DNA of 64,000 bases from Longimicrobiales bacterium (GTDB lineage: Bacteria; Gemmatimonadota; Gemmatimonadetes; Longimicrobiales; Gaopeijiaceae), in NCBI GenBank assembly GCA_965218295.1, contig CBDCKN010000015.1, positions 288,001 to 352,000 of the forward strand. Reading direction: 5' to 3'. The notes beneath the pieces were generated by a model. That model worked only from the letters and a program-made list of their open reading frames with translations, did not search any database and was not told the DNA's origin. A program made the position numbers and the translations under genes. Below, one piece after another: positions 5,727-37,994 of the stretch (positions are counted from its first letter, which is position 1; every line of letters starts with the position of its first letter).

Positions 5727-5734
5727 CGTCGGCG

Positions 5735-16533: not shown

Positions 16534-16541
16534 TTCGATAG

Positions 16542-21526: not shown

Positions 21527-22489
21527 TCAGTCCGTCTTGTCCAAGGGGTTCTCGGCCAAGACCCTCTGCAGCTCCGGGTGCTTGACCCACAGGTAATACC
21601 CCATGGCAACCGAGGCCAACACGTTGCCCACGGCGATGGCCCACCACGCCAGGGGACCGAGGAGGAACTCGGCGGCCAGCGCCATGAGGCCCATGAAGAA
21701 CGCCTCGAAGGCCACGAAGAGCATTACCCCCGCCAGGATGAGGGGAGGCGTATCCTCGGCGTAACACGCGATGGCTGCGGCGACGAAACCGGTAGCGATG
21801 AACGCACCGATGTGGACGATGGTGTATCCCATCACGGTCGCGCTCGACACGCTGACGGCGTCCAGATCGGTGGAGCCCAGGAAGAGCGCGGACCCCAGAG
21901 CTCCTGGCGTGAAGAAGGGTTGCCCACGCCCCATATCAATGATGAGGAACCAGAGGGCCACCACACCGGCACCGATGAGCCCCGACACCAGTCCCTCTTT
22001 GAACATCCGGTGCTCGTCCAAGAGGGCCCACCACGATACCGGTGGCGTGGCGCCCGTGAGGTGGAGGAACCCCATCAAGGTCACGCCCGCGATGAGATTG
22101 CCGGCCACAACCGCGGGCCAGCCGAGCTCTGCGACGACGTCTACGCCTGTGACCGAGACGCTCGTGTAGAAGACGATGTCGAAGAGGGCGAATCCGAGTA
22201 CGAGCCCCAGGAAGACATTGGGTGCCGTATACATCTTCGACAGCGTCCACGACATAAGGAGGCCGACCGCGATGAATGCGGCGTAGTGGATGAGCGTGTA
22301 AAAGAAGACGGGGCCCAGGCTTCGGCTGATGTCCCCGGTGCCGAGAATGGCTCCGGCCAGGAACGCTGGAGTTCGGAACGGCTCGCCCTCGGAGCCGTCG
22401 ATGATCAGGAACCAGAAGGCCATAGCCGTGGCGCCGAGGAATCCGGCCGCGACACCCCGAGGAACCACCCCGCGGAAACGCTCCCTCAT
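21527..22489 (-). CDS. Polytopic membrane protein with an internal duplication
   Basis: Two copies of WFLIID...G.PF.TP..L...YT..H..AFIA.G...GN. Confidence 0.85.
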   Translation of the reverse strand: MRERFRGVVPRGVAAGFLGATAMAFWFLIIDGSEGEPFRTPAFLAGAILGTGDISRSLGPVFFYTLIHYAAFIAVGLLMSWTLSKMYTAPNVFLGLVLGFALFDIVFYTSVSVTGVDVVAELGWPAVVAGNLIAGVTLMGFLHLTGATPPVSWWALLDEHRMFKEGLVSGLIGAGVVALWFLIIDMGRGQPFFTPGALGSALFLGSTDLDAVSVSSATVMGYTIVHIGAFIATGFVAAAIACYAEDTPPLILAGVMLFVAFEAFFMGLMALAAEFLLGPLAWWAIAVGNVLASVAMGYYLWVKHPELQRVLAENPLDKTD

Positions 22490-22711: not shown

Positions 22712-22978
22712 CTAGAATTCTGTGATGACGGCCAGCACCAGAATCACAGCCAGTGGAAGCGGCGAGGCCGCCAACACCCAGAGCCGCCGGGGCTCGTAGC
22801 GGAGATGCATGAAGTACATCGCCACCAGCAGTGCCTTCCACAGCGCCATGATGATCAATCCCGTTGCGAGCCAGACCTTCGGGAGATCCATGAACGCGTA
22901 TCCGACCTCGGCCATCGTCAGCACGAGGAGGACGACCCAGATCAGGATATAACGGGGTTGCGGATGCTCTTCCATCAT
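22712..22978 (-). CDS. ctaF: Cytochrome c oxidase subunit IV family (second oxidase)
   Basis: LLVLTMAEV, KALLVAMYFMHLRYE. Confidence 0.9.
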   Translation of the reverse strand: MMEEHPQPRYILIWVVLLVLTMAEVGYAFMDLPKVWLATGLIIMALWKALLVAMYFMHLRYEPRRLWVLAASPLPLAVILVLAVITEF

Positions 22979-22985
22979 TCCTCCT

Positions 22986-23036
22986 CGCTCATATCAGGTA
23001 CGCGCTCATATCAGGGACACGCTCATATCAAGTAGA
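22986..23036. repeat. Three imperfect 17-bp tandem repeats (core CGCTCATATCA)
   Basis: cgctcatatcaggtacg / cgctcatatcagggaca / cgctcatatcaagtaga. Confidence 0.85.
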
Positions 23037-23679
23037 CGACGGTGAAGAGAAGAATCCACACCAGATCCACGAAGTGCCAGTACAGGCCGATGACTTCGAC
23101 GCCCTGGTGATTCTCCTTGGTATAGCCTCCACGGAGTGCCTTTCCGAATACGAACCAGAGGGCCAGCACTCCCAGGGTCACGTGTGCTCCATGGAAGCCG
23201 GTCATGGCGTAGAAGGTCGCCCCGTAGAGGGGTCCACCGAGGGCCGGACCCTCGTGTGGATTCCCCCGGCCCAGCGCGTGATACGCGTCGAGCATGGGGA
23301 CGAATCCTTCTGCGGACAACACGTTGTACTCCACCGCCTGAATGCCCACGAAGAGCGTTCCGATGAGGATCGTGGCCAGGAGCCAGAGCTTCAACCCCTT
23401 CTGATCTCCATGCTGGATGGCCGCGAAGGCCTTCACCATCGTCACCGACGAGCAGATCAGAAAGAAGGTGTTCAGGGCCGTGAGGGGGACGTTCAGGATC
23501 ACGCCCGGATCCGTCCAATGGTCCGGGTGCGCGAAGCGCAGGATGACGTATGAGCCGATCAGCGAAGTGAAGAACATCACCTCGCTGAGCAGGAACACCC
23601 ACATGCCCAGCTTGTTGTTGTAGACCATCATCCCGGGCATGGGCCTACGGTCCATCGTCGCAGTTGCAGCCTGGCTCAC
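23023..23679 (-). CDS. ctaE: Cytochrome c oxidase subunit III (second oxidase)
   Basis: LGMWVFLLSEVMFF, TGFHGAHV, LYWHFVDLVW. Confidence 0.96.
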   Translation of the reverse strand: MSQAATATMDRRPMPGMMVYNNKLGMWVFLLSEVMFFTSLIGSYVILRFAHPDHWTDPGVILNVPLTALNTFFLICSSVTMVKAFAAIQHGDQKGLKLWLLATILIGTLFVGIQAVEYNVLSAEGFVPMLDAYHALGRGNPHEGPALGGPLYGATFYAMTGFHGAHVTLGVLALWFVFGKALRGGYTKENHQGVEVIGLYWHFVDLVWILLFTVVYLI

Positions 23680-23682
23680 AGG

Positions 23683-25479
23683 TCAGTCTCCGGGAACGGG
23701 TTCAGGGGTGGGCGCTTGAACGCTCTGTCCTCCAACGTCGCTCGTGGGTGGCGGCACGTGTTGCGGATAGAAGTCCTCCTCCCTGTCGGGGTGGCTGTAC
23801 TCATACGGCCCGCGGTACACGATGGGGATCTCCGGGAAGTTTCCGTGGGGCGGAGGAGACGGAACGGACCACTCGAGCGTATTACACTCCCAGGGGTTGT
23901 TGCCGGCCTTCTTACCCTTGAACAGGCTCCACAGGAAGTTGAGGGCGAAGATGGCCTGCGCGCCGGCGAATATGAACATGTTGATGGTTATGAACGTGTT
24001 CATCGGCTGAAGAGCCTGCAGGAACTCGTACTGGTTGGGGTCGTAGATTCGGCGCATCATCCCCTGGACGCCCAGGTTGTGCATGGGGAAGAAGGTCAGG
24101 TTGTAGAAGATGAACGACAGGACCCAGTGCACTTTGCCCAGGCCTTCGTGCATCATCCGCCCGAACAGCTTCGGGAACCAGAACGTGATGCCGGCGAAGA
24201 TCCCGAACAGGGTGCCGCCCACGAGGACGTAGTGGAGATGCGCCACGATGAAGTACGTGTCGTGGATGTAGATGTCCACCGGCGCCGCCGCCATGAAGAT
24301 TCCCGACAGGCCGCCGATGATGAAGAGCGACACGAAGGAGACGGCGTGGAGAAGCGGCGTGTCGAAGTGGATGTTCCCGCGCCACAACGTCCCCATCCAA
24401 TTGAACACCTTGATGGCCGACGGCACGGCGATGACCACCGTGGTGACCACGAACGTCATGCCCAGGAGCGGGTTCATGCCGCTCTGGAACATGTGGTGTC
24501 CCCAGACGATCCACCCCAGGAACGCGATGGAGACGAGGGCCAGGACCATGGAGTGGTACCCGAAGATCGGCTTCCGTGACCTGCAGGAGATCACATCCGA
24601 GACCAACCCCATGGCCGGAAGGATCAGGATGTACACCTCCGGGTGGCCGAAGAACCAGAAGATGTGCTGCCACAATAGCGGCTCGCCGCTCCCCTCGGGT
24701 CGGAAGAAGGCGGTCCCGATGGTCTGGTCGAACAGCAGCAGGATGAGTCCACCCGTCAGGATCGGCACGGCCAGGAGGAGCAGCCAAGCCGTGATGAAGA
24801 TTGCCCAGGTGGCAAGGGGAATCCGGAACCAGGTCATCCCCGGCGCCCGCATGTTGATCACCGTGGAGACGTAGTTGATGGCGCCGGTGATGGACGAGAA
24901 GCCCACGATGATGAGGCTGACCAGCCAGAGCTGCTGTCCCAGGTAGACGCCGGTCCACTCGCCCGACGCGCTCAGGGGCGCGTAGGATGTCCAACCGGCC
25001 CCGGCCGCTCCCCCCTCCACGAAGAAGCTGGCCAGCATGACCACACCGGCGACCGGAACGATCCAGAAGGACGCCATGTTGAGGCGAGGGAACGCCATGT
25101 CGTCGGCGCCGATCTGGAGGGGGATCAGCAGATTACCGAAGACACCCGCCAGCATGGGCATGAGCGCGAAGAACACCATGAAGGTGGCGTGCATCGTCAC
25201 CAGCGAGTTGTAGAACTCCGGGAGGATGATCCCGCCTGGAGCCATCGTGTCCGGCAAGAAGCGGCCGAGGGGCATCGGTTGACCGGGGAACCCGAGCTGC
25301 CAGCGGACCATCCCGGCCAGGATGCCCCCCACCAGCAGGAAGAACAGGGCGGCGAAGAGGAACTGCCGGGCGATCATCTTGTGATCGGTGGAGAACACGT
25401 ACGTCCTGATGAAGCCCAGGTCGTGGTGCCCCTCAGCGTGGCCGGTGTGCGTCTCGGCTACGGCGGTGGTGGTCATCAT
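23683..25479 (-). CDS. ctaD: Cytochrome c oxidase subunit I, type A1 (second oxidase)
   Basis: STDHK, TMHA, IGADD, GHPEVY, WGHHM, PSAIK, HLHY. Confidence 0.97.
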   Translation of the reverse strand: MMTTTAVAETHTGHAEGHHDLGFIRTYVFSTDHKMIARQFLFAALFFLLVGGILAGMVRWQLGFPGQPMPLGRFLPDTMAPGGIILPEFYNSLVTMHATFMVFFALMPMLAGVFGNLLIPLQIGADDMAFPRLNMASFWIVPVAGVVMLASFFVEGGAAGAGWTSYAPLSASGEWTGVYLGQQLWLVSLIIVGFSSITGAINYVSTVINMRAPGMTWFRIPLATWAIFITAWLLLLAVPILTGGLILLLFDQTIGTAFFRPEGSGEPLLWQHIFWFFGHPEVYILILPAMGLVSDVISCRSRKPIFGYHSMVLALVSIAFLGWIVWGHHMFQSGMNPLLGMTFVVTTVVIAVPSAIKVFNWMGTLWRGNIHFDTPLLHAVSFVSLFIIGGLSGIFMAAAPVDIYIHDTYFIVAHLHYVLVGGTLFGIFAGITFWFPKLFGRMMHEGLGKVHWVLSFIFYNLTFFPMHNLGVQGMMRRIYDPNQYEFLQALQPMNTFITINMFIFAGAQAIFALNFLWSLFKGKKAGNNPWECNTLEWSVPSPPPHGNFPEIPIVYRGPYEYSHPDREEDFYPQHVPPPTSDVGGQSVQAPTPEPVPGD

Positions 25480-26159
25480 CAGTCGTCCTCCCCCTCGGCT
25501 TGCTGGCCGGCAAGCCAGGCTTGGAAGTCGGCCTGCGAATGGACCGTGACCGTCCCCTTCATGCGATAGTGTCCGAGTCCACACAGCTCTGCGCAAGCGA
25601 GGGGGAACTCACCCGTGCGGGTCGCCTCGAACCAGACCGGTGTCATGTGGCCGGGGACCGCGTCCTGCTTTACGCGGAACTGGGGAAGGAAGAAGGAGTG
25701 GATCACGTCCTCGGCGCGGAGGTTGACCCGCACTGGCCGATCCACCGGGATGTGCAGTGCGTTGCGAGATACGAAGTCGTCCGAAGTGCCGAGCTGGCCG
25801 TCCGCACCAGCGTAGGTGGCGTTCCACTCGAACTGCTTCGCCGTGATGTCGATCTGGTCCGCGTCGGGCGGAATGCGCGCCGGATCCCGAATCTCGTCCC
25901 AGATCCCCTTGGAGTAGATGGCCAGCCCCATGACGATGATGAACGGTATGACGGTCCAAACGACCTCCGCCTTGTTGCTCCCGTGGATGTACTCCGCCTT
26001 GCGACCTTCCCTGTGGCGGTACTTCACGAGGAAGACAACCAGCGTGATCTCCGTGATGAAGAACACGATTCCCGTAATCCACAGGATCACGTAGTAGAGG
26101 TTGTCCAAGGCCGGCCCGAAGGTGGAAACGGTCTCCGGCATGAGCCAGGAAAAGTTCAT
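25479..26159 (-). CDS. ctaC: Cytochrome c oxidase subunit II without fused heme c
   Basis: DVIHSFF, CAELCGLGHYRM CuA site; no CxxCH. Confidence 0.96.
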   Translation of the reverse strand: MNFSWLMPETVSTFGPALDNLYYVILWITGIVFFITEITLVVFLVKYRHREGRKAEYIHGSNKAEVVWTVIPFIIVMGLAIYSKGIWDEIRDPARIPPDADQIDITAKQFEWNATYAGADGQLGTSDDFVSRNALHIPVDRPVRVNLRAEDVIHSFFLPQFRVKQDAVPGHMTPVWFEATRTGEFPLACAELCGLGHYRMKGTVTVHSQADFQAWLAGQQAEGEDD

Positions 26160-26248
26160 CCCACTGGTCTCCCGAGCTTGAGGTTGACTCTCACAGTCAC
26201 GACGGGTCGGGCCCGTCGGCCGACGCTGACCGACGGACCCGGCACGTT

Positions 26249-27103
26249 CTAGTCTCTGTCGACGGCCATGCCGTGGTCGTGGAGATCGACAGCCTCACCC
26301 AACGGCACCACGGCGCTGGCCATGGAAGCGCTGAATGTGAACGTGATCTCCGCCGTTTCGCCAGTAGCCACGGTGACGTTCTGCGTCTGGGTGCCGTAGC
26401 GCTCGTGCCACGCCTCGATGACATAGTCACCCGGGGGCAGCGTGGACAGGTCGAAGCTTCCGTCGGAGCCGGACACCGAGTGGTACGGGTGTTCGAGAAC
26501 GCCGATGTATGCGTTCATCCACCCGTGCACGTCACAGCGCACCGGCACCATGACCTCCGCCGTGCGGAAACTGCGGGTGCTCTCCATGTTCATGGGTTGG
26601 CTCGTGTTGAAGCCCCGCTGCTCGGTCGGCGACGCGTTGATGTTGTGCAGAAGACCGTCGCTGTTGCGGATGGTGATGTCCTGGCCCGTCATGACCCCCA
26701 GAACGTGCGGGATGTACGTGCATCCGTCCTGGTCCAGGAGCGCCGGGCCGGGCGTCGGGAACTGGAGGCCCTCCAGCCCCTCCTTCACGTAGACGAACAC
26801 ATTGGCGAGAGAGCCGTCGTCCACCACGACCTCTTCGGCCATGGGCGCGGAGGCATGCTTGTCCGCGCACACCTGCTCGTCGCTCATGTCGATGGCGTCC
26901 ATAGCGGGAGCGTCACCCTCGAAGACGACGGTCCCGGCGATGTTGCCCGCGGTGGCCGCATCGACCGGGTTCTCCATCCCCATGGATCCGCTACCGGAGT
27001 CACCGGAGCCGCTCCCACCGCCGTCACCCCCACCACAACCCGCCGCCAAGAGTGTCACAAGCGCGGGGGTCATCACCCAGCGCAGTGCAGTTCGATCCGA
27101 CAT
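26249..27103 (-). CDS. Lipoprotein with cupredoxin-like and carboxypeptidase-regulatory-like domains
   Basis: Lipobox LAAGC; LLHN...CDVHGWM candidate type-1 Cu ligands; DGSF....LPPGDY..EAWHE. Confidence 0.75.
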   Translation of the reverse strand: MSDRTALRWVMTPALVTLLAAGCGGGDGGGSGSGDSGSGSMGMENPVDAATAGNIAGTVVFEGDAPAMDAIDMSDEQVCADKHASAPMAEEVVVDDGSLANVFVYVKEGLEGLQFPTPGPALLDQDGCTYIPHVLGVMTGQDITIRNSDGLLHNINASPTEQRGFNTSQPMNMESTRSFRTAEVMVPVRCDVHGWMNAYIGVLEHPYHSVSGSDGSFDLSTLPPGDYVIEAWHERYGTQTQNVTVATGETAEITFTFSASMASAVVPLGEAVDLHDHGMAVDRD

Positions 27104-27127: not shown

Positions 27128-28858
27128 TCAGCCTTGTTTTGATTCGGTCTCTTCCACGATCTCGCCTTCACGCTCTCGCTTCTGCGCCCTACCGACCACG
27201 AGAATCCCCAGCCCCGCCGTAAGCATCATAGCCACTACGGGAGCGACGAACACCGTGTTGGGAGTGGGCTCCTGGAGGAACAAGAAGTACCACGAGCTCA
27301 CGGAGCTACGCGTGCCCGATTCTCCGTTGTCCCCGTCCCAGGCGAAGAACGCCACCGGAATGGCCTGGCCGGTGATGAAGTCCAGATCGCCCTCGTCCTC
27401 GGTGAGCAGGGTGCGAGTGAACATAACCTGCCACTGCCCATCCTCGTGGGAGGCGCTCACCGCGAGATCCTGTCCGTCCGACGGGTAGCTCTCCGTGCCG
27501 ATCCCCCGGGCCTCGCCCTCGAGGGCCGTGCTTCGGTCGCTCTGCCACTGCCAGAGGTAGACCGGTCGACGGTTGTCGCCCCGCATGAAGTAGGGGCGCT
27601 CCATCCCCTGCGGCATCTGCATGGGGAACTGGAGAAGGAGCTGGTCCGGTGTGGGTCCCGACTCGGGTGGGTCTCCCTCTTTGGGGCCCATGAACGAGAT
27701 GACCTGCGACTTCCAGTCGGCCCAGTCGGGATCGGGGCTCAGGCTGGGGTCGCTCCAGCGGACCCGCACGGCGACTTCTTGGCCGTCGTGGAGGGCCTGG
27801 ACCCACACGCCGTCCGCACGAGGATCGAACCAGCGAGGCTTCACGATGATCTGTCCCGCCAGCGGGATATAGGCCGGCTCGGTGGTGTCCCACAGGGCGT
27901 CGTCAACGGACGTGGGAAGCGGCACGTCCTCGAGGAGTGCGGCCCGCACGACCTCGTTGATGCCGGGCTCTTCCTCGGGGGAGAAGCTCCGGACGTAATG
28001 CGCCAGCGCCCAGAGCTGGTCGTCGGTCATGACCTGGGCGTCGATCAGGTCCGAGAAGTTGGGCATGGGGGTCCCGTCCAGGCCCGTTCGAAGGCGGCGA
28101 TAGATGTCCTCCACCGTGCCACCACCGTTGAACAGCCAGTTCTCCGTGAGATCGGTCGCTCGGATCGGGAAGTCGCTGTCGTCGCCAAGGGTGGGCGAGG
28201 ACTGCCCCTCCCCACGACCTTGGTCGCCATGACACTTCCAGCACTCGATGGCTTCGTATTGGGCCTTGCCCTCGGCGAGTACTTCGTCCGACACCCGGGT
28301 GGGGCGGCCGAAGTCGAGGGGCTCGGGGACTTCGTCGGGCGAGAAGAAACGCGAGAAGCCCTTGAGGTATTGAACCAGGGCATCGCGCTCCTGCCGCGAC
28401 AGCAGATCCTCCCAACCCGGCATAGTCGTACCGGGCATCCCGAGGTCGATGACATTGAGCATGTCCTCGTCCGTCGGGAGCTCCCCGCTGGCCGTCGACC
28501 GGATCTGGTAGAGGGCCTGAGTGAAGTCGCGCGGGCGAGGGAGCATCATCTCGGCGCCCGGGCCCGTTCCTGTCCCGTCGACCCCGTGGCACCCCGCACA
28601 CCATCTTTCGTAGGTGGCCTTCCCGAGATCGTCACCCTCCTGGCCTGCTAGCCCCGCTGCCCCCAGCCCGCCCACCCCCAGCCCGCCCACCAGGAAGAGC
28701 ACAGATGCTGCAACCGCCAGTCCGGAGGCGAGGCCAGTGCGAGGATCCCTTGGCCCACACGTTCGGGGGCCCGCCTCCGTGTTCTCTCCCACACCTCGCC
28801 GAGGGCCCGCCGCGAGATTCCCCTCGAAGCGACGTTCAATCGCAGATTTGCGCATCAC
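27128..28858 (-). CDS. Diheme cytochrome c fused to an ethylbenzene dehydrogenase gamma-like (EB_dh) domain, membrane-anchored
   Basis: CAGCH, CWKCH, PRPRDF, GTPMP; V.ALHDG...VRWSD, PVYLWQW, AFFAWDG; C-terminal TM. Confidence 0.85.
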   Translation of the reverse strand: MMRKSAIERRFEGNLAAGPRRGVGENTEAGPRTCGPRDPRTGLASGLAVAASVLFLVGGLGVGGLGAAGLAGQEGDDLGKATYERWCAGCHGVDGTGTGPGAEMMLPRPRDFTQALYQIRSTASGELPTDEDMLNVIDLGMPGTTMPGWEDLLSRQERDALVQYLKGFSRFFSPDEVPEPLDFGRPTRVSDEVLAEGKAQYEAIECWKCHGDQGRGEGQSSPTLGDDSDFPIRATDLTENWLFNGGGTVEDIYRRLRTGLDGTPMPNFSDLIDAQVMTDDQLWALAHYVRSFSPEEEPGINEVVRAALLEDVPLPTSVDDALWDTTEPAYIPLAGQIIVKPRWFDPRADGVWVQALHDGQEVAVRVRWSDPSLSPDPDWADWKSQVISFMGPKEGDPPESGPTPDQLLLQFPMQMPQGMERPYFMRGDNRRPVYLWQWQSDRSTALEGEARGIGTESYPSDGQDLAVSASHEDGQWQVMFTRTLLTEDEGDLDFITGQAIPVAFFAWDGDNGESGTRSSVSSWYFLFLQEPTPNTVFVAPVVAMMLTAGLGILVVGRAQKREREGEIVEETESKQG

Positions 28859-29652
28859 GGCTCACCCCCTTCCTCGGCTTCCTCCCAAGTGCGGGGCTCG
28901 TGCCCCGATTGTTCGTAAAGGAAGATGATCACGGACCAGATCTCGTCCGCCGTGAGGAAGTCCTCCCAGGCCGGCATGGCCGAGTTCCAGGGCGCGCCCT
29001 CGTTGGGAAGCCCCGGGCCGCCCTTGGCGATCCGCCAGAACACGAAGCTCTCGGTGAGCTGCGCGATAGTGCCCACGTCCTCGAAGCTCGCCGGAGTCGG
29101 GTTGAACACTGCTGCGTAGTGCCCCTGCCCGCTGAGCCCGTCGCCGTGACAGGCGAGACAATTCTGGTAGTAGACCCGCTTGCCCTCTTCGTAGTGATCC
29201 TCCAGAGACCCGGTTGTCCTCAGAGGGTTCTCGAGCCCGGAGAGCTGCATGGTCTCGCCCTGAAAGTCGATCTGGCCGGGAGGCGCCGGATGAATGGACC
29301 TGAGGCTCAGAGGCGCGGCTACCGAGGGCCGCACCTGGTTGAACGTGCCGAAGGCTACCAGGACCGGAATGGCCACCATGAAGACGCCGCGCACCGTCTT
29401 GCGCTCCGGATCCACCATCGTCCTGTGGAACGGCGCCTTGAACTCCGTCCAACGCTCCTCGTTGTCGCTCACCCAGAGCAGAACCCCCACCGCGGCTGTC
29501 AGCATGAACTGAAAAAGGACGGAGTTCGGGACCGGAGCGCTGGCGATCCCAACCAGAGGGGGGAGGTATACGATGCCGTAGTCCAGCAACACGTACGACA
29601 GCACCAGAACCGTTACCGCCTGACCGAACGGATGCTTGAAGTGCTTGCCCAT
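28855..29652 (-). CDS. Membrane-anchored monoheme cytochrome c
   Basis: Three N-terminal TM helices, CLACH, SAMPAW. Confidence 0.9.
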   Translation of the reverse strand: MGKHFKHPFGQAVTVLVLSYVLLDYGIVYLPPLVGIASAPVPNSVLFQFMLTAAVGVLLWVSDNEERWTEFKAPFHRTMVDPERKTVRGVFMVAIPVLVAFGTFNQVRPSVAAPLSLRSIHPAPPGQIDFQGETMQLSGLENPLRTTGSLEDHYEEGKRVYYQNCLACHGDGLSGQGHYAAVFNPTPASFEDVGTIAQLTESFVFWRIAKGGPGLPNEGAPWNSAMPAWEDFLTADEIWSVIIFLYEQSGHEPRTWEEAEEGGEP

Positions 29653-29669: not shown

Positions 29670-30467
29670 CTACTGTTGGCTGGCCAGGAACTGAACCACG
29701 GCTTCCAGCTGGGCGGCCGTCAGCTGTGCTCCGAAAATCTGGGGCATGACGCCCAAGAACACCTCGTACCCCTCTGACGCGCCGGCCGACGGATCCAGGA
29801 TCGACTGCCGAATGTAGTCTGCGTCCACACGTCCGCCGATCCCGTCGAAGGCCGGTCCCATGGGGACGCCCTCACCGTTGAGCTGGTGGCATACCAGGCA
29901 GGTGTTGGCACGCAGGATCTCGAGCGGGTCCAGAGACGCGGTCGCCGGAGCCGCCGTGGCCGGCGCTGCCGCAGCGGTGGACTCGGACCCTCCCCCCTCG
30001 TCGGCCACGTCGGCGCCCGTGACCGTCACCTCGCCACCCTGGGCCTGGAGGAAGGCCACCACGGACCAGATCTGCGCATTGGACAGCGATCGCCGCATGT
30101 CCGGCATGATCGGGTTAAAGCCCTTCACGAGGTAGTCGCTGGGATCGGTCATGGCCGCGTACAGGTAGGCCTTGCAGTCCTGGCCGCTCACCCGGTTGCC
30201 GCAACGGACGCCGATGGTGCCAACGCCGCCCTGGTCCGTGAGGAGATTCGGGGCGCGAGTCCCGAGTCCGTGACATGCCACACAGCCGCCCGCACCGTTG
30301 TACAAGAGCTCTCCCGACGATACCAGCTCGGCCTCGGTGACGTTGGCTCCGAAGGTCAGCTCCTGGGGCACCTCGGACTGGACCTGGGGGATGGAATTCG
30401 CAACGAGGGTGAAGACGGCCAGCGTCCCGATGACGACTGACAGGATCCTCAGATTCTCTGCAAGCAT
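29670..30467 (-). CDS. Diheme cytochrome c
   Basis: CVACH...IMP and CLVCH...VMP; N-terminal anchor. Confidence 0.9.
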   Translation of the reverse strand: MLAENLRILSVVIGTLAVFTLVANSIPQVQSEVPQELTFGANVTEAELVSSGELLYNGAGGCVACHGLGTRAPNLLTDQGGVGTIGVRCGNRVSGQDCKAYLYAAMTDPSDYLVKGFNPIMPDMRRSLSNAQIWSVVAFLQAQGGEVTVTGADVADEGGGSESTAAAAPATAAPATASLDPLEILRANTCLVCHQLNGEGVPMGPAFDGIGGRVDADYIRQSILDPSAGASEGYEVFLGVMPQIFGAQLTAAQLEAVVQFLASQQ

Positions 30468-30528: not shown

Positions 30529-32322
30529 TCAGTCGCCCGCCACCGGAGCCAGCTCCGGTCCCGACTGCGCCCCGGCCCCCACACTCGAGACCACCGGTTT
30601 CTCGGCCAGCCCGCCGAGCCAGAAGATGAAGGCCACCAGTGTCAGGAAGATCAGCACACACGCCGAGATGACTATAGAGGCATACCCCAACGCAGGCGTA
30701 GCCGCCCACTCGCTGGTGTCGCGCATCACCTCCCACACGTGCCAGTGCTGGCGAATTCCGCTGCGAGCGAAGCCCATGAGACCCATCAGCCACGTGAAGG
30801 TGACGGCGAGGACAAAGAGGGCGTACTGCGACCGGGGGGGCATCTGGCCCCACCGGATAGCTCCCCGGGACTCGGCGCCCCGGCTCAGGAAGAGGTCGAT
30901 GCCGACCACGGCCGCAATGGTGAACAGGACTGCAAGCACCTGATAGACCGAGAATCCGATCCTGACGATGGCGCTGACGAAGTATCCATAGATCCCGTAG
31001 AAGATCACGATCCCGGCCGAGATCACGAACAGCGCGCCCTGCACCACGGTCCCTGTTCGCGCCCAGCTGACCGTCGGGCGCATGTTCGCCCGCCGGTAGA
31101 GAAGGAACGAAAGGAACGTCGTCAGGATCATGATATTCACCGCCGTATTCTTGGCGCTCATGACGCCCAGGACACCCAAGAAAGGGTGGTGAGTCCCGCC
31201 CATGGCCGCGATCTCTTCTCGGTTGGCGATCATCGTGTGCGGCGTCGCCCACACGATCACGCCCACGACCAGCACGAACAGCATGTACTTCGTGTAGGGG
31301 GTGAAGCGCTCGGCTCCGGGAATGCGCCCCATGCCCACCCACAGGTAGTAGTTGCCAGTCAGGAAAAGCACGCCGATGAGGAAGGCCTGGATTATCCAGA
31401 GCCAGCTCATGAAGCCACCCATCATGGTGATGCCCATCTGCTGGTTGAACTCGTAGACCTCACGGCCGAGGTAGTAGCCGGCGAAGGGCAGGACGATGAG
31501 TGCCCCGATGGCGATGAGGTTGCCCACGTACCCCATCCAGTCGTAGTGGGCCCGCTCCTCATCCGTCTTGGCCATGAGGAAGCGGTAAGCGGCGTACGCC
31601 CCCACGATGGCGCCACCGAAGACAACGTTGGCGATGAAGCGGTGGATGTTGATGGGAATCCAGGTCGCGTTCGCGAAGGCGCTCCAGAACTGGACCATGG
31701 CCGGCGCCGTGTCGGGCCCGACGTCGGCGGGCGGACTCATCATGTATGTGAGCCAGGAGTTGGCGATGAACATGACCATGGTGCCCCAGACGTTGAGCAT
31801 GATGCCCAGCGACCAGTGGACCAGCTTGGCACGCCCCTTCTTCCAGCGATCCCAGCCGTAGTAGTAGAGGTAGAGCGTGAACGATTCGAAGAAGAACAGG
31901 CCCACGTACACCCACATGGAGGCCTCGAAGATCTCCGCCAAGTAGAGCCAGAGCTTGGGATAAAGCGTGATGAGCAGGAAGAGCAGGATCGCTCCCCAGA
32001 TTGCCGTGGCGGAGTAGGCCACCAGGAGAAGCCGGGTGAACTCCTTGGCGAGCTTGTCGTACTTCTCCTCGCTCCCGAAGATGCCGATGGCCTCGACCAC
32101 CACGGCGAACATTGGAACGCCAAGTACGAAGGCGGCGAAGAGAAGGTGCACCTGTGCCGCCACCCAGATCGCGACCCGACTCCCGACCAGTGGGAAATCA
32201 CCGTACTCGCGGGCAGCGACCGCGTCCTGTGCCCAAGCGACCTCAGGGAAGATGTGGAATGCGAGGCCCATCAGGCCCAGGGCTCCCAGGAGCTTCAAAG
32301 CCATCCTAGGGCGCGGGCTCAC
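30529..32322 (-). CDS. Cytochrome bd subunit I-like (bd-like) oxidoreductase
   Basis: QVHLLFAAF, FFFESF..YYYGWDR, IANSW, NIHRFIAN, R..IRQHW correspond to CydA motifs; no Q-loop K/E motif; no cydB in the window. Confidence 0.82.
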   Translation of the reverse strand: MSPRPRMALKLLGALGLMGLAFHIFPEVAWAQDAVAAREYGDFPLVGSRVAIWVAAQVHLLFAAFVLGVPMFAVVVEAIGIFGSEEKYDKLAKEFTRLLLVAYSATAIWGAILLFLLITLYPKLWLYLAEIFEASMWVYVGLFFFESFTLYLYYYGWDRWKKGRAKLVHWSLGIMLNVWGTMVMFIANSWLTYMMSPPADVGPDTAPAMVQFWSAFANATWIPINIHRFIANVVFGGAIVGAYAAYRFLMAKTDEERAHYDWMGYVGNLIAIGALIVLPFAGYYLGREVYEFNQQMGITMMGGFMSWLWIIQAFLIGVLFLTGNYYLWVGMGRIPGAERFTPYTKYMLFVLVVGVIVWATPHTMIANREEIAAMGGTHHPFLGVLGVMSAKNTAVNIMILTTFLSFLLYRRANMRPTVSWARTGTVVQGALFVISAGIVIFYGIYGYFVSAIVRIGFSVYQVLAVLFTIAAVVGIDLFLSRGAESRGAIRWGQMPPRSQYALFVLAVTFTWLMGLMGFARSGIRQHWHVWEVMRDTSEWAATPALGYASIVISACVLIFLTLVAFIFWLGGLAEKPVVSSVGAGAQSGPELAPVAGD

Positions 32323-33698
32323 GCCGATCCTCCCCTGCCGAGGAAGAACGGAAGCTTTTTCGAGAAGTCCACCGGAAGGCTCTTACGGACCTCGGCCATG
32401 ACCTCGGTATCTACGCGGGCATATCCCTTCTCGAGGGCAAATTTTTCCACGCGGGCCGTCACTACCCCACGGACGAAGCTCGGCACTCGCTCCAGGCGGG
32501 CTCGAGCCTCCGGGGACCAAGACAATTCAGACGTGGCCGGCTGACCGTATGAGACCCGATCCCCCGGACTCACCAGGGGTGCCTCGCCCGTAGGCTCGTA
32601 AACGCACGAGTCGTCCGGGCCCATGAAATCGCCGCCGTCGGCATAGGCGCGGGCACGGCAACCGCCGCACACCTCGCGATACTCGCACCGGCCGCAACGC
32701 CCCGAGAGGCTTCCGGATCGGAGCTCTGTGAAGACCTCAGACGTCCTCCAGATCGTCTGGAAGCTGTCCGTCATGAGGTCACCGGCCACGACGGGCATGT
32801 AGGGGCAGGGAGTCACCTTCCCTTCGGGAGTGATGCGGACGTAGTGCACGCCACATGGGCATCGGGTCTCGTAGTTGAGCAGGGGCGAATCCGGATCCCC
32901 CTGCAGCACATGGCGCATGAGCTGTGGCTGGCACTTGGAGCGGACCATCATCCGGCCGCGGTAGGTCCTCTCCAGCTCGACCAGCTCCTTCAAGACGTCG
33001 TCGTTCTCGGACGGCGACATCCCGCGCATGTGCTCGGCTCTCCCGGTGGGAACCACGAAGTAGACGTTGAAGGAGACGGCTCCCGCCGCCGCAGACCAGC
33101 GCGCCAGCTCGGCGATTTCATGACGGTTCCCGGTGGTCACCGTGGTCTGGATGACGAAATCGAGCTCATGGCGGGCACAGCGCTCGACGGCCGCCATGGT
33201 ATCGGCCAGTGCGCCGCCCCCGTGGCGAAAGCGATCGTGATATTCGGGCCGAAGCGAGTCGATACTCACCGCCACGCCCTTGATTCCCGCCGCCATCAAG
33301 GACTCGATGCGTTCATCGGTGAGCCCGATGCCGTTGGTCCCGACGACCACGGTCGCGCCAAGGGACGTGGCTCTCTCGGCGAGGGCCTCCAGATCGTCCC
33401 GAACCAGGGGCTCCCCACCGGTCAGGATCAGCATGGGGTTGGCATTGACCTCGAGGATCTCGCCCATGATCAGGAAGCACTGCTCCGTGGAGAGCTCCTC
33501 GGAGGCAAGGTGCCACGATCCGGCGGAGATGTAGCAGTGCGCGCACTCGAGGTTGCAGCGTTTCGTCAGATTCCAGGCGACGATGTGGGGGACGTAGCCC
33601 TCCCCCTCGCCTCCGAGCCCAGGCTCTTCCCGACCGACCGGGGCCGGCCGTGACAGTGTCGCTGCCGAGGAGCGCTTACGGTCCAGGCCGCGGATCAC
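32319..33698 (-). CDS. Radical SAM/SPASM enzyme (AhbC/AhbD/NirJ-like) with a C-terminal PCP_red-like domain
   Basis: WNLTKRCNLECAHC, TGGEPL, CGRC...CGGCRARA; tail WSPEARARLERVPSFVR; GTG start overlaps the USP stop. Confidence 0.88.
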   Translation of the reverse strand: MIRGLDRKRSSAATLSRPAPVGREEPGLGGEGEGYVPHIVAWNLTKRCNLECAHCYISAGSWHLASEELSTEQCFLIMGEILEVNANPMLILTGGEPLVRDDLEALAERATSLGATVVVGTNGIGLTDERIESLMAAGIKGVAVSIDSLRPEYHDRFRHGGGALADTMAAVERCARHELDFVIQTTVTTGNRHEIAELARWSAAAGAVSFNVYFVVPTGRAEHMRGMSPSENDDVLKELVELERTYRGRMMVRSKCQPQLMRHVLQGDPDSPLLNYETRCPCGVHYVRITPEGKVTPCPYMPVVAGDLMTDSFQTIWRTSEVFTELRSGSLSGRCGRCEYREVCGGCRARAYADGGDFMGPDDSCVYEPTGEAPLVSPGDRVSYGQPATSELSWSPEARARLERVPSFVRGVVTARVEKFALEKGYARVDTEVMAEVRKSLPVDFSKKLPFFLGRGGSA

Positions 33699-35860
33699 GC
33701 TTCGCCGGCCTCTTCGCTCATGAACTGCTCGATGGCGGCCTTGGCGTCGTCGGGCGAGACGGTCTTGAAGTCCACCGGACACTGGTCCGCCGCTTCCGCC
33801 ACATCGCGGATGGGGCAGCGTGTTACGCCGCTGGCCTTGGCCTCCTCGATGAACCTCCGCATCTCGGGGGTGAGGCCGTCGACTCCTTCCGCCTCCGCCC
33901 TGATCTGCTTGGTCTGGAGCTCGCGGAACATGACCAGCATGGTGTCCATGTCGAACTCGTCCGCCTCGATCATGGCCTGCTTGTTCTCGTCCATGACCGG
34001 CGTCGTCACACGCCAGAAGTCGTGCTCACGGGCGAAGCGCTCCACGGTGTTGCGGGCCAAGGGTCGGGCGATGAGAGGAACGAGCCTGAGTCGTTCGAAG
34101 GCCTCCTGGGTCCACTGGACGGGATCCCTGGCCGTTCTCTCGCGGCTCTCGACGTGTCCCGTGTAAGGACACTTCGCCGAGACCATGGGGACCTCCGGCA
34201 GCGGGTCCGCGTCCAGACCCTCCACCACCGTGCGTTTCATGGCCTCTTCGGCCTTCACCTCGGCGAGGGCGAGCTCTTCCGCGGTGCCGATGCCCATGAT
34301 CAGCTGCATATGCGTAGGCAGGAGTTTCTGGATGGCCTCGTCCAGCCGCGCGCTGGTCACCATGGGGAGGCCGTCGGCTCCCAGGGGAGGCACGGCGGCA
34401 CCCGGCTCCGCAGGGGTGTCGGCGCCGGCCGTGTCGTTCGACCCGGCACCGTTCGAGGCGCCGCCACGCTCGGCACCGTTCGAGGCGCTGCCACGCGTCG
34501 GCGTGAGCGGGTCTTCCCGATACGTGCCGTTGGCCCCGGGTCCGTAGTTGTCGAGGACGTACTCCTCCACGGCTTTGCGTGCTATGCCGAGTGCGAAGGG
34601 AGGCACGCGCAGGATTCTGACCTCCGAGTCGGGCGACCACTCCAGGCCCGTTTCGCCGTCCTCTTCGATCCACGGGATGTCGTCCGGACGGACGTCCAGA
34701 GTGCCAACGAGAAGGATGTTACCGTGGGCGAGCCTGCAAAGGTTGTCCGCCTGCGAGCCCATGTCGGTGTCTTCGATACGGTGCCCACCGTGACGTGCCA
34801 GGATCAGGAGGCTGGGCCCGATCTCTTCGATCCACTGGAGGATGCACTGGAACGGCTTTCCGACGAGGATCTGTGTCTCCACCTCCACGTCGGGGAACTC
34901 GTCGGCCATGACCTGAGCACGCTTGAGGTTGGCCTGGGCGAGCTTCAGGAGGCCCTTGTCGATGATGTTGTTGTGGAGCTCCTCCTGTTCTTCGAACTTG
35001 AACACCTTCGAGGCCTGCGCCGAAAGGATGTCCTTGATGTTGCCGAAGACGGCGTGGTGGTACTCGACGTCGAAGGCGGAGCAGACGTGGAGCTTCGCAC
35101 CGAACTCCCGGGCCAGCTCGAGTGCCAGGCGCATGGCCTTGTAGGAGTACGACGAACCGTCGACGCAGACGATCCAATTGCCGTTCTCCAGTGGCCTCTC
35201 GTCTCTGATGAGGAGGGTGTCCTTCTCGACCTCGCGGATTACCCGGGAGACCATCCCGCCCAACTGGGAGTACGGCTGCTTGCCGATGCCGTGGGCTCCG
35301 ATGACCAACAGGTCGTATTGGCGACCACTCGAGCCGGCAAGCTTCTCGTCCTGCTCTTCATCTTCGGCCACGATTCGGCCGTCCTCGCCTATCTTCATAT
35401 CGCTCCGGACCGTCGCGCCCCCGTCGTACTTGTCGGCGATGTTCGGGTCGAAGCCGATGAGGCTTGGCAGTCGTCCGCTGCCACCGTTGGCCTCACGGAT
35501 TACCTCCTCGTAATTGATTCCTTCGAGGAGCTGTCTGGTGAGGAGGACGCCTGCGGAGTCGCAGGCCTTCGCCGTCTGGTCGAGGAAAGAATCTGAGATG
35601 AGCTGGAGGCCCTTCTCGATCAGCTTGTCATGGATCTTCCTCTGTCGCTTGATCTCCTGGGCGGTCTGGAACTGGGCCGGGAGGCCGGTCTCCAGCTGTC
35701 GAAAGCGAACGTCGTGTAGGCGGGCGGCATAGACGTGGTTTCCGGTGATCCGTCCGTCGAAGCGGGAACAGACCTCGATGGCCCGGTCCACGGCCCAATA
35801 GGAATGTTGGGAGTTGTCTACTGGTACGAAGACTTCACGGTACATAAATACCTCGGGCAT
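33695..35860 (-). CDS. Tandem universal stress protein domains plus two PCP_red-like domains
   Basis: VPVDNS..S..A and VCVDGSSYS USP starts; LLVIGAHG; WSPDS..RILRVPPF and WTQEAFERLRLVP. Confidence 0.85.
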   Translation of the reverse strand: MPEVFMYREVFVPVDNSQHSYWAVDRAIEVCSRFDGRITGNHVYAARLHDVRFRQLETGLPAQFQTAQEIKRQRKIHDKLIEKGLQLISDSFLDQTAKACDSAGVLLTRQLLEGINYEEVIREANGGSGRLPSLIGFDPNIADKYDGGATVRSDMKIGEDGRIVAEDEEQDEKLAGSSGRQYDLLVIGAHGIGKQPYSQLGGMVSRVIREVEKDTLLIRDERPLENGNWIVCVDGSSYSYKAMRLALELAREFGAKLHVCSAFDVEYHHAVFGNIKDILSAQASKVFKFEEQEELHNNIIDKGLLKLAQANLKRAQVMADEFPDVEVETQILVGKPFQCILQWIEEIGPSLLILARHGGHRIEDTDMGSQADNLCRLAHGNILLVGTLDVRPDDIPWIEEDGETGLEWSPDSEVRILRVPPFALGIARKAVEEYVLDNYGPGANGTYREDPLTPTRGSASNGAERGGASNGAGSNDTAGADTPAEPGAAVPPLGADGLPMVTSARLDEAIQKLLPTHMQLIMGIGTAEELALAEVKAEEAMKRTVVEGLDADPLPEVPMVSAKCPYTGHVESRERTARDPVQWTQEAFERLRLVPLIARPLARNTVERFAREHDFWRVTTPVMDENKQAMIEADEFDMDTMLVMFRELQTKQIRAEAEGVDGLTPEMRRFIEEAKASGVTRCPIRDVAEAADQCPVDFKTVSPDDAKAAIEQFMSEEAGEA

Positions 35861-35965
35861 AGCCCTTTAGCCGAGCGTCATAATGGGGTCGGCAGACCCC
35901 CCGCGACCCGATGTATGGTGACGTGCTTTTCAGTCTCGGGGATATCACGAATCCTACCGGGGGCC

Positions 35966-35995
35966 AGTATACCCGGCCTTTCTGAGACCTGTCAA
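35966..35995 (-). promoter_or_regulatory. Near-consensus sigma70 promoter for the USP-to-oxidase operon
   Basis: TTGACA-18 bp-TATACT on the minus strand, ~105 bp upstream of the USP gene. Confidence 0.75.
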
Positions 35996-36083
35996 TAAAT
36001 TCGGACGGGCACTGATACCGTGTGGGAAATCCCCATGTTAATCACGGCATCGGGGCCCTGCACGCACGGTCCAATATCGTCCC

Positions 36084-36554
36084 CTACATGCCCTCCAGGC
36101 CCAACTCCGTCCGAGCCCGGTCCATGACCTCGGGCGTTATCTCGGCTACTGCGTGCTCCTTGGCCCAGTCGACGTAGATCCGCTTCACCATCCCTCGGAC
36201 GAAGCTCGGGACCTTCTGCATCCGCTCGGTCGCCTCGGGGCTCCAGAGGACCGAACCGGCCTGGGAAGCTTGCCCGGCCGGCTGTCTGGGGATGTCCTCC
36301 GACATGCCGAAGGCCTCCTCTCTCCCCCCCTCCAGAGAGCTGCGAACCAACTCGAGGGGTTGAGCGGGCACCTCTCGCCCGCCGATCTTTATCCCCAGGC
36401 TCGACACGAGCTGCGTCTCCATGGGGTTCGTGAGCATGGCCACCTCCCTCCCGCACGAACCGCAGGAGAACACGGCGGCCAGGGTGCCGTCACCAGGAAG
36501 TTGCCGCTCGGCGAAGTCCATGACGTTGTCACACTCGATGCAGAGGAACTTCAT
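36084..36554 (-). CDS. Zn-ribbon-like protein with a PCP_red-like domain
   Basis: MKFLCIECD...CGSCG...LTNPMETQLV; WSPEATERMQKVPSFVRGMV; ATGA overlap with mrp. Confidence 0.82.
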   Translation of the reverse strand: MKFLCIECDNVMDFAERQLPGDGTLAAVFSCGSCGREVAMLTNPMETQLVSSLGIKIGGREVPAQPLELVRSSLEGGREEAFGMSEDIPRQPAGQASQAGSVLWSPEATERMQKVPSFVRGMVKRIYVDWAKEHAVAEITPEVMDRARTELGLEGM

Positions 36555-37450
36555 CGGGCGCTCCCCTCCATCGTGGCGGCGACCCTGTCTGCGAGGGCGA
36601 GGAGGGCGCGGCTGGAAGCCGCCTCCGGATCCTCCGTTACCAGAGGCGATCCCAGGTCGGTGGAGGCCCCAAGGCGTGCGTCGAAGGGAATGTCGGCCCA
36701 AAGCGGCAGGCCCGACTCCTCGGCGAGGCGTCGTGCCCCGTCCCCGCTGAACAGCTGAGACGTGTGACCGCAGGACGGGCAGACGTGCTCCGTCATATTC
36801 GCCACGAGGGCCACCGTCGAGACTTCCGCCTCGCGCGCCATCCGCACGGACTTCGACACGACAAAGCGGGCCGCCTCCGACGGCGTCGTCACGAGGAGCA
36901 TCTGGTGGAGGCCCGGGACCAGCTCGAGAAGCCGCGCGATCTTGTCCGTTCCGGGCGGTACGTCCACCAGCAGAACGTCCAGGTCACCCCAGGCCACGTC
37001 GCCAAGAAACTCCCTGAGAGCGCCGGTCTCCATGGCGCTCTGCCATATGAACCGACCGGTGGACGGCTCGCGCCAGCGAAGCGGTGCGTCCTCGTCCTGC
37101 TGGAGCAGCTCCATGGACATGACCCGGACGCCGGTTGGGCTCAGGGCCGGTTCCACACCATCTGATCGATCGACGAGGCGGGCACCGGAAACCCCCAGCA
37201 TCCGGCCCAGGGAGGGGCCGTTGAGGTCCGCGTCCGCCGCCCCGACCTCCAGCCCCCGTTGGGCCAGGGCGGCGGCCAGGTTCGCGGTGACGGCGCTCTT
37301 CCCCACCCCACCCTTGCCGCTGGCGACGGCGACCACCGATCCTACCCGGGAGAGGCGGTCCGCCAGTCGCTGGTCCAGCTCGAGCACCTGCTCGAGGAGC
37401 TGCGATCCCGTCTCGTGGGTGACCTCCGTGTACGTCCGGATCTTCCGCAT
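36551..37450 (-). CDS. Mrp/NBP35 (ApbC) P-loop ATPase, Fe-S carrier
   Basis: ASGKGGVGKS, DADLNGPS, WGDLD.LLVDVPPGT, CPSCG. Confidence 0.92.
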   Translation of the reverse strand: MRKIRTYTEVTHETGSQLLEQVLELDQRLADRLSRVGSVVAVASGKGGVGKSAVTANLAAALAQRGLEVGAADADLNGPSLGRMLGVSGARLVDRSDGVEPALSPTGVRVMSMELLQQDEDAPLRWREPSTGRFIWQSAMETGALREFLGDVAWGDLDVLLVDVPPGTDKIARLLELVPGLHQMLLVTTPSEAARFVVSKSVRMAREAEVSTVALVANMTEHVCPSCGHTSQLFSGDGARRLAEESGLPLWADIPFDARLGASTDLGSPLVTEDPEAASSRALLALADRVAATMEGSAR

Positions 37451-37473: not shown

Positions 37474-37710
37474 CTACGGGACGAGCTGCGCTCCCTCCTC
37501 GTCCAAGGCCGTCAGAGCGTCGACCGGGCAGGACGAGCAGGCGTCGAGCAGCACCTCCCGGTCCACGGCGGGATCGCCCGTCCTGAACGCAGCGATGCCT
37601 TCGTCGTCGAGCTCGAATACATCCGGGGCGACATCGATGCAGTCGCAGAACCCCACGCACAGGTCCCGCTCGATCCGGATCGTGAGACCCGCGAGAGCAC
37701 GCTCGGAAAT
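37474..37710 (-). CDS. Single-cluster ferredoxin; start codon uncertain
   Basis: IERDLCVGFCDCIDVAPDVFELDDEG...ACSSCPVDAL. Confidence 0.8.
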   Translation of the reverse strand: MSERALAGLTIRIERDLCVGFCDCIDVAPDVFELDDEGIAAFRTGDPAVDREVLLDACSSCPVDALTALDEEGAQLVP

Positions 37711-37994
37711 GTTACTCGATTCCGCTTCAGCGAAGGATGAGATGAGGAATCTGCCCGTCGGGGTGATAAGGGGGTTAACGTGTTCGGAGCCAGCCGGGCG
37801 GGCAAGGGGTGAGCAGCCGGTGAGCATCGGGTGACGCGTGAGCATCACTCATCTCCGAGTGGGTCTCGGGATGCGAACACCCATACCGTGGCGGGGTAGT
37901 CCGTGGCCGTTCCAGAACACCTGGTGCGGGCGCGCGGCTGATTACGGGTGCACGTCCGAGATGGGCGGACACGTTTCGTTACGGAGAGTCGCAC

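Follow-up and report, generated by a model that had tools for sequence, protein, structure and literature searches.

A conserved cassette of PCP_red proteins with Mrp and ferredoxin, a candidate cofactor-maturation module of an OR-N-type bd-like oxidase in Gemmatimonadota

A 64,000-nucleotide stretch of the genome of a Longimicrobiales bacterium (Gemmatimonadota; contig CBDCKN010000015.1, positions 288,001 to 352,000; here called the window) contains a minus-strand operon that encodes, in this order, a ferredoxin, an Mrp-type ATPase, a zinc-finger protein, a tandem universal-stress protein (USP), a radical S-adenosylmethionine (SAM) enzyme, a cytochrome bd-like oxidase subunit, three c-type cytochromes and the haem-copper oxidase coxBACD (Table 1). 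The zinc-finger protein, the USP and the radical SAM enzyme share a small domain, PCP_red (PF08369), which is known elsewhere from chlorophyll synthesis. Documented by its domains, gene order, co-occurrence and conservation, the cassette is a real conserved system composed of known parts in an undescribed combination. Because the PCP_red trio was confined almost wholly to bacteria with a bd-like oxidase, it is likely a kit that makes and loads the haem of this oxidase. On balance, and with some reserve, we read the three PCP_red proteins, Mrp and ferredoxin as a cofactor-maturation module, for haem synthesis and hand-off, of an OR-N-type bd-like oxidase.

Four PCP_red segments in three adjacent proteins had been proposed in a preliminary description from a sequence motif, and a hidden Markov model (HMM) search with PF08369 (gathering cut-off 32.5 bits) bore this out. 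The radical SAM enzyme (residues 422-466 of the longest open reading frame, ORF) and the zinc-finger protein (residues 104-148) scored 52.1 and 45.4 bits, respectively, and the second USP copy (residues 583-627) scored 39.7 bits for the domain alone. The first USP copy (residues 408-436) matched model positions 1-29 only and, at 19.2 bits, remained below the cut-off; orthologous first copies from other lineages scored 37-67 bits with our own HMM. This first copy is split by a variable insertion of approximately 50 residues (residues ~450-497), after which a conserved segment (residues 498-515) resembles its last helix, for which the HMM gave no separate match. No other PF08369 match at E ≤ 0.01 was found in the 3.57-Mb genome. 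Together with this genome-wide search, the scores spanned 52-56 bits for the radical SAM tail, 45-48 for the zinc-finger copy and 19-20 for the first USP copy. A relaxed form of the original motif yielded 8 matches in 40,570 six-frame ORFs, comprising the four PCP_red copies and four segments without Pfam support. In the radical SAM tail, the W, R, P and F of the motif W..R..IP.F.R were invariant in 67 of 67 sequences. The three-helix fold of 2KRU and 2L09 was compared with the zinc-finger protein copy only, whose AlphaFold model superposed on 2KRU with a root-mean-square deviation of 1.3 Å (53 columns, E 3.8e-3); the deviation from ChlB of 2YNM was 1.4 Å. A Foldseek search with the model of the zinc-finger protein gave no row at E ≤ 0.001. 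The 90.7%-complete genome contained no match to PF00148, the nitrogenase-fold/DPOR subunit family, and the model of DPOR subunit B (TIGR01278) reached at most 43 bits against a cut-off of 490.

PF08369 matches were present in 108 of 301 Gemmatimonadota genomes, which were classified by the number and score of the matches into 88 of cassette type (81 with exactly four matches), 15 of BchB type (one or two matches, the best above 67 bits; nine inspected) and five with weak single matches. An orthologue of the bd-like subunit occurred in 86 genomes. All 86 carried the cassette, which corresponds to 86 of the 88 cassette genomes and none of the 15 BchB-type genomes. Two cassette genomes gave no oxidase match: in G178 the contig stops just past the USP gene, and in G050 a 9.6-kb contig shows a different gene order, unlike that of Gemmatimonadota. 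In 20 of 20 fetched loci, the Mrp gene was located directly upstream of the zinc-finger gene, with a ferredoxin gene flanking this pair, followed by USP, radical SAM and oxidase genes, and in all six full-length loci this order was kept through coxA. The genes are linked here, and as the genomes are kin, the co-occurrence counts are not independent. The closest relatives of the USP carry the label Gemmatimonadetes, and no relative was found in viral contigs. As a separate observation, several Gemmatimonadota loci showed an ATP-binding cassette (ABC) ATPase between the zinc-finger/ferredoxin genes and the USP gene (among them L112:3310-4296, L114:4439-6105 and L125:3699-5380), in two cases with an ABC-2 permease; in the window, this position is a gap of approximately 220 bases. 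Such a transporter is a possible exporter for haem or an intermediate.

A genome scan in other phyla returned at least 554 USP relatives among 584 candidate stretches. Among the best 80 of these loci (nearly all Nitrospirota, with one Nitrospinia and two records labelled Proteobacteria), the USP gene was followed by a radical SAM gene (>60 bits) in 73, with a PCP_red tail wherever the radical SAM sequence was complete. No Mrp, ferredoxin or bd-like gene was found in flanks of up to 10 kb of these 80 USP genes, many of the contigs being shorter. Among 151 Nitrospirota genomes, 53 encoded both USP and bd-like subunit (one of these oxidase matches being weak, E 2e-19), two USP only, one the oxidase only and 95 neither; for 61 Nitrospinota genomes, these numbers were 56 with both, two with the oxidase only and three with neither. 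Because a nearby bd-like gene was absent from all 80 Nitrospirota/Nitrospinia loci, co-occurrence of USP and oxidase is not explained by linkage alone. These counts support the tie to the bd-like enzyme that the preliminary description had inferred.

In ten Nitrospirota loci outside the Nitrospirales, the USP-radical SAM pair was kept throughout, in five cases adjoining the oxidase; seven of the ten USPs lacked PCP_red, and all ten radical SAM enzymes carried at least one copy. Members of the zinc-finger family were detected in 42 of the 151 Nitrospirota genomes, all of them USP-positive, and in 49 of 61 Nitrospinota genomes, with Mrp directly upstream of the zinc-finger gene in 35 of 36 loci from these two phyla. 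In a metagenome lineage, for which an Atlas cluster label alone suggests Acidobacteriota, the order was oxidase, cytochromes, USP, an extra ORF, Mrp, zinc finger and radical SAM; Mrp was present in 71 of 80 loci, the other nine having fewer than 300 bases upstream. Haem-copper oxidase genes neighbour the cassette both in this lineage and in Gemmatimonadota. The system thus falls into two pairs of genes: USP and radical SAM form a core that is constant across lineages, to which Mrp and zinc finger are a frequent addition. In genome G448, oxidase, USP and radical SAM share one operon with a single PCP_red copy, and no Mrp or zinc-finger gene was found. A complete Nitrospira genome encodes 12 PCP_red domains in five proteins, one of which lies beside a bd-like gene pair.

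Several further features of these loci were recorded. In the metagenome lineage, the ORF between USP and Mrp is conserved and approximately 280 residues long (L213:7201-8082, L216:7078-7914), with no NCBIfam match at E 1e-25. Nitrospira USP-radical SAM pairs were flanked by a B12-binding-type radical SAM gene in 54 of 80 loci and by a DUF4149-like membrane protein in 71 of 80 (L036:8071-9705, L017:3618-4142). Nitrospira genome G301 encodes a protein with four PCP_red repeats and a separate, Cys-bearing protein with two (L266:7604-8602, L267:13813-14310), the latter just upstream of a bd-like gene pair.

In the proposed mechanism, the AhbD-like radical SAM enzyme would make or modify haem without oxygen or peroxide, probably from coproheme. 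The ATP-type tandem USP would bind this haem via paired histidines and Cys-Pro motifs and pass it to the oxidase. The dedicated Mrp, predicted to bind the zinc-finger-PCP_red adaptor, would load the [4Fe-4S] clusters of the radical SAM enzyme, and the ferredoxin would supply electrons. PCP_red itself may be a handle or lid that the proteins share and that can be used repeatedly, with a single general type of surface, and not a four-letter address code. A bolder version, which we put forward only tentatively and rate as rather doubtful, is that a novel biogenesis machine makes a non-standard haem for OR-N oxidases, with the USP as an ATP-gated bis-histidine haem chaperone and PCP_red as a general tetrapyrrole clip. 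If so, its range would include nitrite, ammonia and manganese oxidisers as well as many Gemmatimonadota, and the PCP_red clip would predate or parallel the photosynthetic use of the domain.

The families that best matched the radical SAM enzyme were NirJ2 (278 bits) and AhbD (266 bits), both with a cut-off of 500. AhbD and NirJ2 models were also best-scoring in six orthologues from several lineages (289-340 bits for AhbD); in this family, tetrapyrrole-enzyme models gave 270-340 bits as compared with at most 180 for peptide-maturase models. Eleven cysteines, three of the radical SAM triad and eight of the SPASM domain, were invariant in 67 of 67 sampled orthologues. The genome encodes HemE, ferrochelatase and a member of the ChdC/Cld family, and no AhbA/B match was found in it; coproheme, of the coproporphyrin route, is therefore the expected haem intermediate. 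A role in haem maturation, as put forward in the preliminary description, gained partial support from this closeness to haem-synthesis families.

Three Cys-Pro motifs of the USP (C564, C682 and C694) were invariant in 120 of 120 close homologues. In 48 distant USP tails, 17 of 68 free cysteines preceded proline, in 14 proteins, as against 3.7 expected, and the CPxxH and CPF forms of the motif were absent from the 74 Nitrospira USPs checked. This Cys-Pro enrichment, and the rubredoxin and occasional PNPOx-like fusions among homologues, count in favour of the proposed module. Cys-Pro is a typical haem-regulatory motif and USPs are often regulators. These properties, together with rubredoxin knuckles in many USP homologues, would also fit a plainer scheme, in which the radical SAM enzyme is just an AhbD, making haem b without oxygen for growth when oxygen is low, and the USP, instead of carrying haem, senses haem or redox state and regulates this enzyme or the oxidase. 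AhbD can replace ChdC, either enzyme being able to perform the last step of the coproporphyrin pathway (PMC7242693, in excerpt). However, a general haem b synthase is not expected to track one oxidase family so tightly, and the score of the radical SAM enzyme is well below that required for AhbD, which makes the scheme unlikely. Four USP homologues have an additional domain: P0146 and P0185 showed a weak match to a PNPOx-like split barrel, and P0149 and P0212 a similar-looking N-terminal part. The stand-alone zinc finger was considered as a split-off USP module and rejected, as it had no detectable homology to the rubredoxin knuckles of other USPs.

The cassette Mrp matched PF10609 with 236 bits, and its C224 and C227 were present in at least 90% of 70 sequences. 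A second gene, on contig C17, encodes the housekeeping Mrp; cassette Mrps clustered apart from three housekeeping-type rows (support 99/98, with midpoint root and few outgroups). In the zinc-finger protein, which formed two independent domains in the AlphaFold model, all four cysteines were invariant in 70 of 70 sequences, and its zinc-finger half had no significant structural match. A single complex prediction, of Mrp with the zinc-finger protein, used 70-row alignments from the same loci and gave an ipSAE interface score of 0.69, as compared with 0.00 for the best control. Of pairs with a solved complex, 116 of 157 attained this mark, as compared with 2 of 215 mismatched pairs; these counts are rough for custom alignments. 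The runs shared at least 90% of contacts, and the model confidence (pLDDT) of the partner was 76. The prediction supports binding of the zinc-finger protein by Mrp; we know of no solved complex of this kind. Because 27 of the 70 aligned zinc-finger proteins have gaps at the linker helix that makes the best predicted contacts, the interface may differ between lineages. Apparent Mrp-zinc-finger fusions (P0124-P0126) consist of a truncated Mrp and a low-complexity join, look like frameshift artefacts and were not used as fusion evidence.

The preliminary description had seen in PCP_red a docking code linking the three proteins to Mrp and ferredoxin; in its explicit form each copy, by analogy with BchB and BchL, docks directly on Mrp and recruits the three proteins in turn for Fe-S loading. 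Of its link to Mrp, gene coupling and predicted binding to one PCP_red protein stood, and Mrp is coupled to a PCP_red protein in four lineages. The predicted contacts on the partner, however, lay mostly in the zinc finger and linker (residues 1-11, 48-60 and 64-83), with only four in PCP_red (118, 121, 122 and 125), of which F118 and M122 are conserved. The Mrp is not BchL-like, scoring 21.7 bits with TIGR01281 (cut-off 345) and 17.5 with Fer4_NifH (cut-off 25), and in excerpts of PMC13474568 and PMC12022308 a role of PCP_red in docking to BchL of DPOR found no confirmation. USPs without PCP_red and the single-copy G448 operon argue against the code as well, and a ferredoxin beside the cassette, the other supposed docking partner, was not found outside Gemmatimonadota. 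With profiles from other lineages, 23 of the 24 first USP copies of Gemmatimonadota fell into a class of their own, but radical SAM and zinc-finger tails were mixed (15/13 and 18/12). That these two tails are of one surface type speaks for the code, but tails that are indistinguishable across lineages argue against separate addresses. From the mixed tail assignments and the separate first-USP class, PCP_red appears at the sequence level to comprise two classes, one integral to the USP and one interchangeable and terminal, and not four addresses; copies per USP ranged from 0 to 6 across homologues. We consider a docking code on Mrp quite improbable. Recent origin from a photosynthesis gene cluster was also rejected: BchB-type and cassette genomes were disjoint in the sample, and no Gemmatimonadota cassette copy was assigned to the BchB class, which was built from nine BchB-type genomes of the same phylum.

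In the AlphaFold model of USP residues 1-437 (pLDDT 87.9), the histidines proposed to hold haem are located on helical insertions of a tandem-USP fold. Conservation was assessed in 67 distant homologues, chosen among 150 listed with close relatives and short fragments omitted. Six histidines were near-invariant: H42, H268 and H296 (67/67), H49 and H77 (66/67) and H360 (65/67). Each domain holds a pair spaced 28 residues apart (H49/H77; H268/H296). Two Usp domains and the ATP motif G-2x-G-9x-G are present, with G188, G191 and G201 and G358 and G368 invariant; position 355 is Ala here and Gly in 62 of 67 homologues. The conserved insertions are rich in His, Glu and Asp (H42, H49, E57, H77; D264, H268, H296, H360), and such residues might instead bind Cu or non-haem Fe, the module then being a metal chaperone for the bd-like or the adjacent haem-copper oxidase, which has neighbouring genes in Gemmatimonadota and the metagenome lineage. 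This would leave the constant haem-type radical SAM partner and the Cys-Pro enrichment unexplained, and most Nitrospirales lack canonical haem-copper oxidases (PMC10579370, in excerpt) yet are USP-positive. We regard a metal chaperone as very unlikely.

The bd-like subunit matched PF01654 only at positions 2-248 of 418 and gave approximately 30 bits with CydA equivalogs, which require ~1000. It was 50-53% identical to the best bd-like matches of Nitrospira and Nitrospina. Its CydA-like N-terminus without the canonical quinol-oxidase remainder, and its operon with c-type cytochromes, agree with OR-N enzymes; a crude hydropathy scan counted 11 transmembrane helices, where 14 are expected of OR-N1/N2. 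OR-N was defined by Murali et al., and OR-N2 often lacks a second cydA-like gene (bioRxiv 10.1101/2021.01.16.426971, in excerpt). According to excerpts of PMC12342949, PMC10579370 and PMC10839748, the OR-N bd-like enzyme is a putative, unconfirmed terminal oxidase, and its composition and function are stated in the last two to lack experimental confirmation. We hold it highly improbable that the radical SAM/SPASM enzyme acts on the oxidase polypeptide itself, introducing a cross-link or forming a cofactor from the protein, while the USP holds the substrate as a chaperone. In favour of this, SPASM enzymes commonly modify peptides or proteins, SkfB and PqqE are the enzyme's nearest relatives of solved structure, and in Gemmatimonadota its gene adjoins that of the oxidase. 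Against it, peptide-maturase models score far lower than those of tetrapyrrole enzymes, and SkfB and PqqE met no competing AhbD or NirJ structure, none having turned up in the PDB search. In four Gemmatimonadota genomes there is an additional bd-like gene of more distant kinship (~50% identity); in one of them (G125; L106, G125:C1:2105000-2124999) it lies among duplicated cytochrome genes, with no helper genes within the 20 kb covered.

Several observations weigh against a haem-maturation module for the oxidase. The radical SAM enzyme and its orthologues are far under the AhbD cut-off (266-340 bits as against 500), and the ChdC/Cld-family gene already serves haem b. Some lineages can do without Mrp and the zinc-finger protein: the latter turned up in just 42 of 55 USP-positive Nitrospirota, and one genome (G396) has it without an Mrp match. 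The gapped linker helix mentioned above weakens the proposed adaptor. In Nitrospira, the Mrp-zinc-finger pair lies beside genes that motifs label as sulfur-assimilation-type; at L265:1437-10654 it follows Rrf2 regulator-, sulfite reductase- and PAPS/APS reductase-like genes, a hint that the pair may be connected with the supply of sulfur or siroheme. Three OR-N genomes had no USP match and four cassette or USP genomes no oxidase match, all being incomplete metagenome-assembled genomes, and kinship among the genomes limits the weight of the counts. Finally, haem binding, haem chemistry and hand-off are steps that we infer. Even so, the module of haem synthesis and hand-off remains the reading we prefer.

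Table 1. Cassette and operon features, in window coordinates.
Feature	Position	Strand	Basis
Small single-cluster ferredoxin	37474..37848	-	Fer4_13/Fer4_15 over cut-off
Dedicated Mrp/ApbC Fe-S carrier ATPase	36551..37450	-	PF10609; GKGGVGKS; C-terminal CxxC; family-specific N-terminal helix
Zinc-finger (CxxC-x22-CxxC)-linker-PCP_red protein, 156 residues; predicted Mrp partner	36084..36554	-	PF08369; four invariant Cys; two-domain model; complex prediction
PCP_red of zinc-finger protein, residues 104-148	36111..36245	-	PF08369
Tandem USP, 721 residues, with histidine-bearing helical insertions, two PCP_red and three Cys-Pro	33695..35860	-	Pfam; conservation; AlphaFold
USP domain 1 insertion with H42, H49, H77	35630..35737	-	Homologue conservation
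USP domain 2 insertion with H268, H296 (H360 beyond)	34973..35059	-	Homologue conservation
USP PCP_red copy 1, residues 408-436, partial	34553..34639	-	PF08369 below cut-off
USP PCP_red copy 2, residues 583-627	33980..34114	-	PF08369
AhbD/NirJ2-like radical SAM/SPASM enzyme with C-terminal PCP_red	32319..33698 (longest ORF to 33782)	-	NirJ2/AhbD profiles
PCP_red tail of radical SAM enzyme	32385..32519	-	PF08369
Cytochrome bd-like (OR-N-type) oxidase subunit	30529..32322	-	PF01654, N-terminal part only
Dihaem cytochrome c, oxidase cluster	29670..30467	-	
Membrane monohaem cytochrome c	28855..29652	-	
Dihaem cytochrome c fused to EB_dh/DMSO-reductase-type haem b domain	27128..28858	-	
Carboxypeptidase-regulatory-like protein and haem-copper oxidase coxB, A, C, D, operon end	22712..27103	-	

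Stop and start codons overlap between Mrp and zinc-finger genes (the latter starting at ATG 36554), between USP and radical SAM genes and between radical SAM and oxidase genes. GTG 33698 is the probable start of the radical SAM gene, and the start of the ferredoxin gene is uncertain, its relatives being mostly ~80 residues long. Metatranscriptome contigs (four runs of one study, with small word shares) cover pieces of the operon, are uninformative on co-transcription or level and were not used. The operon closes with a 320-residue membrane protein (window 21527-22489, minus strand) that is internally duplicated and has no Pfam match; other Gemmatimonadota also have relatives of it close to the cassette. 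Facing the bd-like operon is another cluster for a haem-copper oxidase (13553-17135, plus strand), consisting of coxB with a c-type haem motif, coxA and coxC; the two coxA products are 45% identical. The ORF at 20183-21073 we take to be CtaG-like. At 3290-6562 (minus strand), ORFs that resemble, from motifs only, a phosphopantetheinyl transferase, a thioesterase, a deacetylase and a methyltransferase may mark where a biosynthetic cluster begins or ends.

In Nitrospira and Nitrospina, the OR-N bd-like enzyme has been proposed to act as terminal oxidase. In the Gemmatimonadota operon, oxidase, cytochromes and candidate helpers lie within about 11 kb, and this compactness makes it a ready construct for heterologous reconstitution. 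The cassette is also a convenient setting in which to study what PF08369 does, and haem carriage would be a possible new role for USPs. No description of the module was found in the literature searched, mostly without subscription journals, and the operon-context supplement of Murali et al. may bear on its novelty. In main texts on OR-N and TO_1 oxidases, as far as these were available, the terms "universal stress" and "radical SAM" do not occur.

Each component has known counterparts. The tandem USPs Rv2623, TTHA0350 and UspE share the fold (Foldseek E ~1e-16) and the G-2x-G-9x-G motif, but at 14-19% identity the present USP differs by its His-bearing helical insertion in each domain, PCP_red repeats and Cys-Pro tail. 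PCP_red has the fold (1.3-1.4 Å) and the W..R..IP.F.R motif of DPOR subunit B (BchB/ChlB; 2KRU, 2YNM) and of stand-alone Asr4154 (2L09), with three of four copies above the Pfam cut-off; here, however, no DPOR was found in the genome, and the domain occurs in repeats and as a part of radical SAM, USP and zinc-finger proteins. With haem b synthase AhbD and NirJ2 (TIGR04545, TIGR04055), its best-scoring families, the radical SAM enzyme has CxxxCxxC and eight SPASM cysteines in common, while its score is about half the cut-off and it combines a C-terminal PCP_red, a genome without AhbA/B and pairing with USP and oxidase. Like Mrp/ApbC/NBP35 carriers, including MrpORP, the Mrp matches PF10609 and has a deviant Walker A and a C-terminal CxxC; in contrast to ApbC and MrpORP, whose cut-offs it does not reach, it has an extra N-terminal helix and is a dedicated paralogue coupled to a zinc-finger-PCP_red gene. 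The oxidase itself is closest to the OR-N2 enzyme of the NIDE0901 type and to TO_1 of Manganitrophus, which consists of a bd-like protein, two c-type cytochromes and a periplasmic cytochrome b (bioRxiv 10.1101/2021.11.15.468770, in excerpt). The bd-like subunit, two c-type cytochromes and periplasmic haem b subunit are alike, whereas here they occur in Gemmatimonadota and in one operon with their candidate helpers and a haem-copper oxidase.

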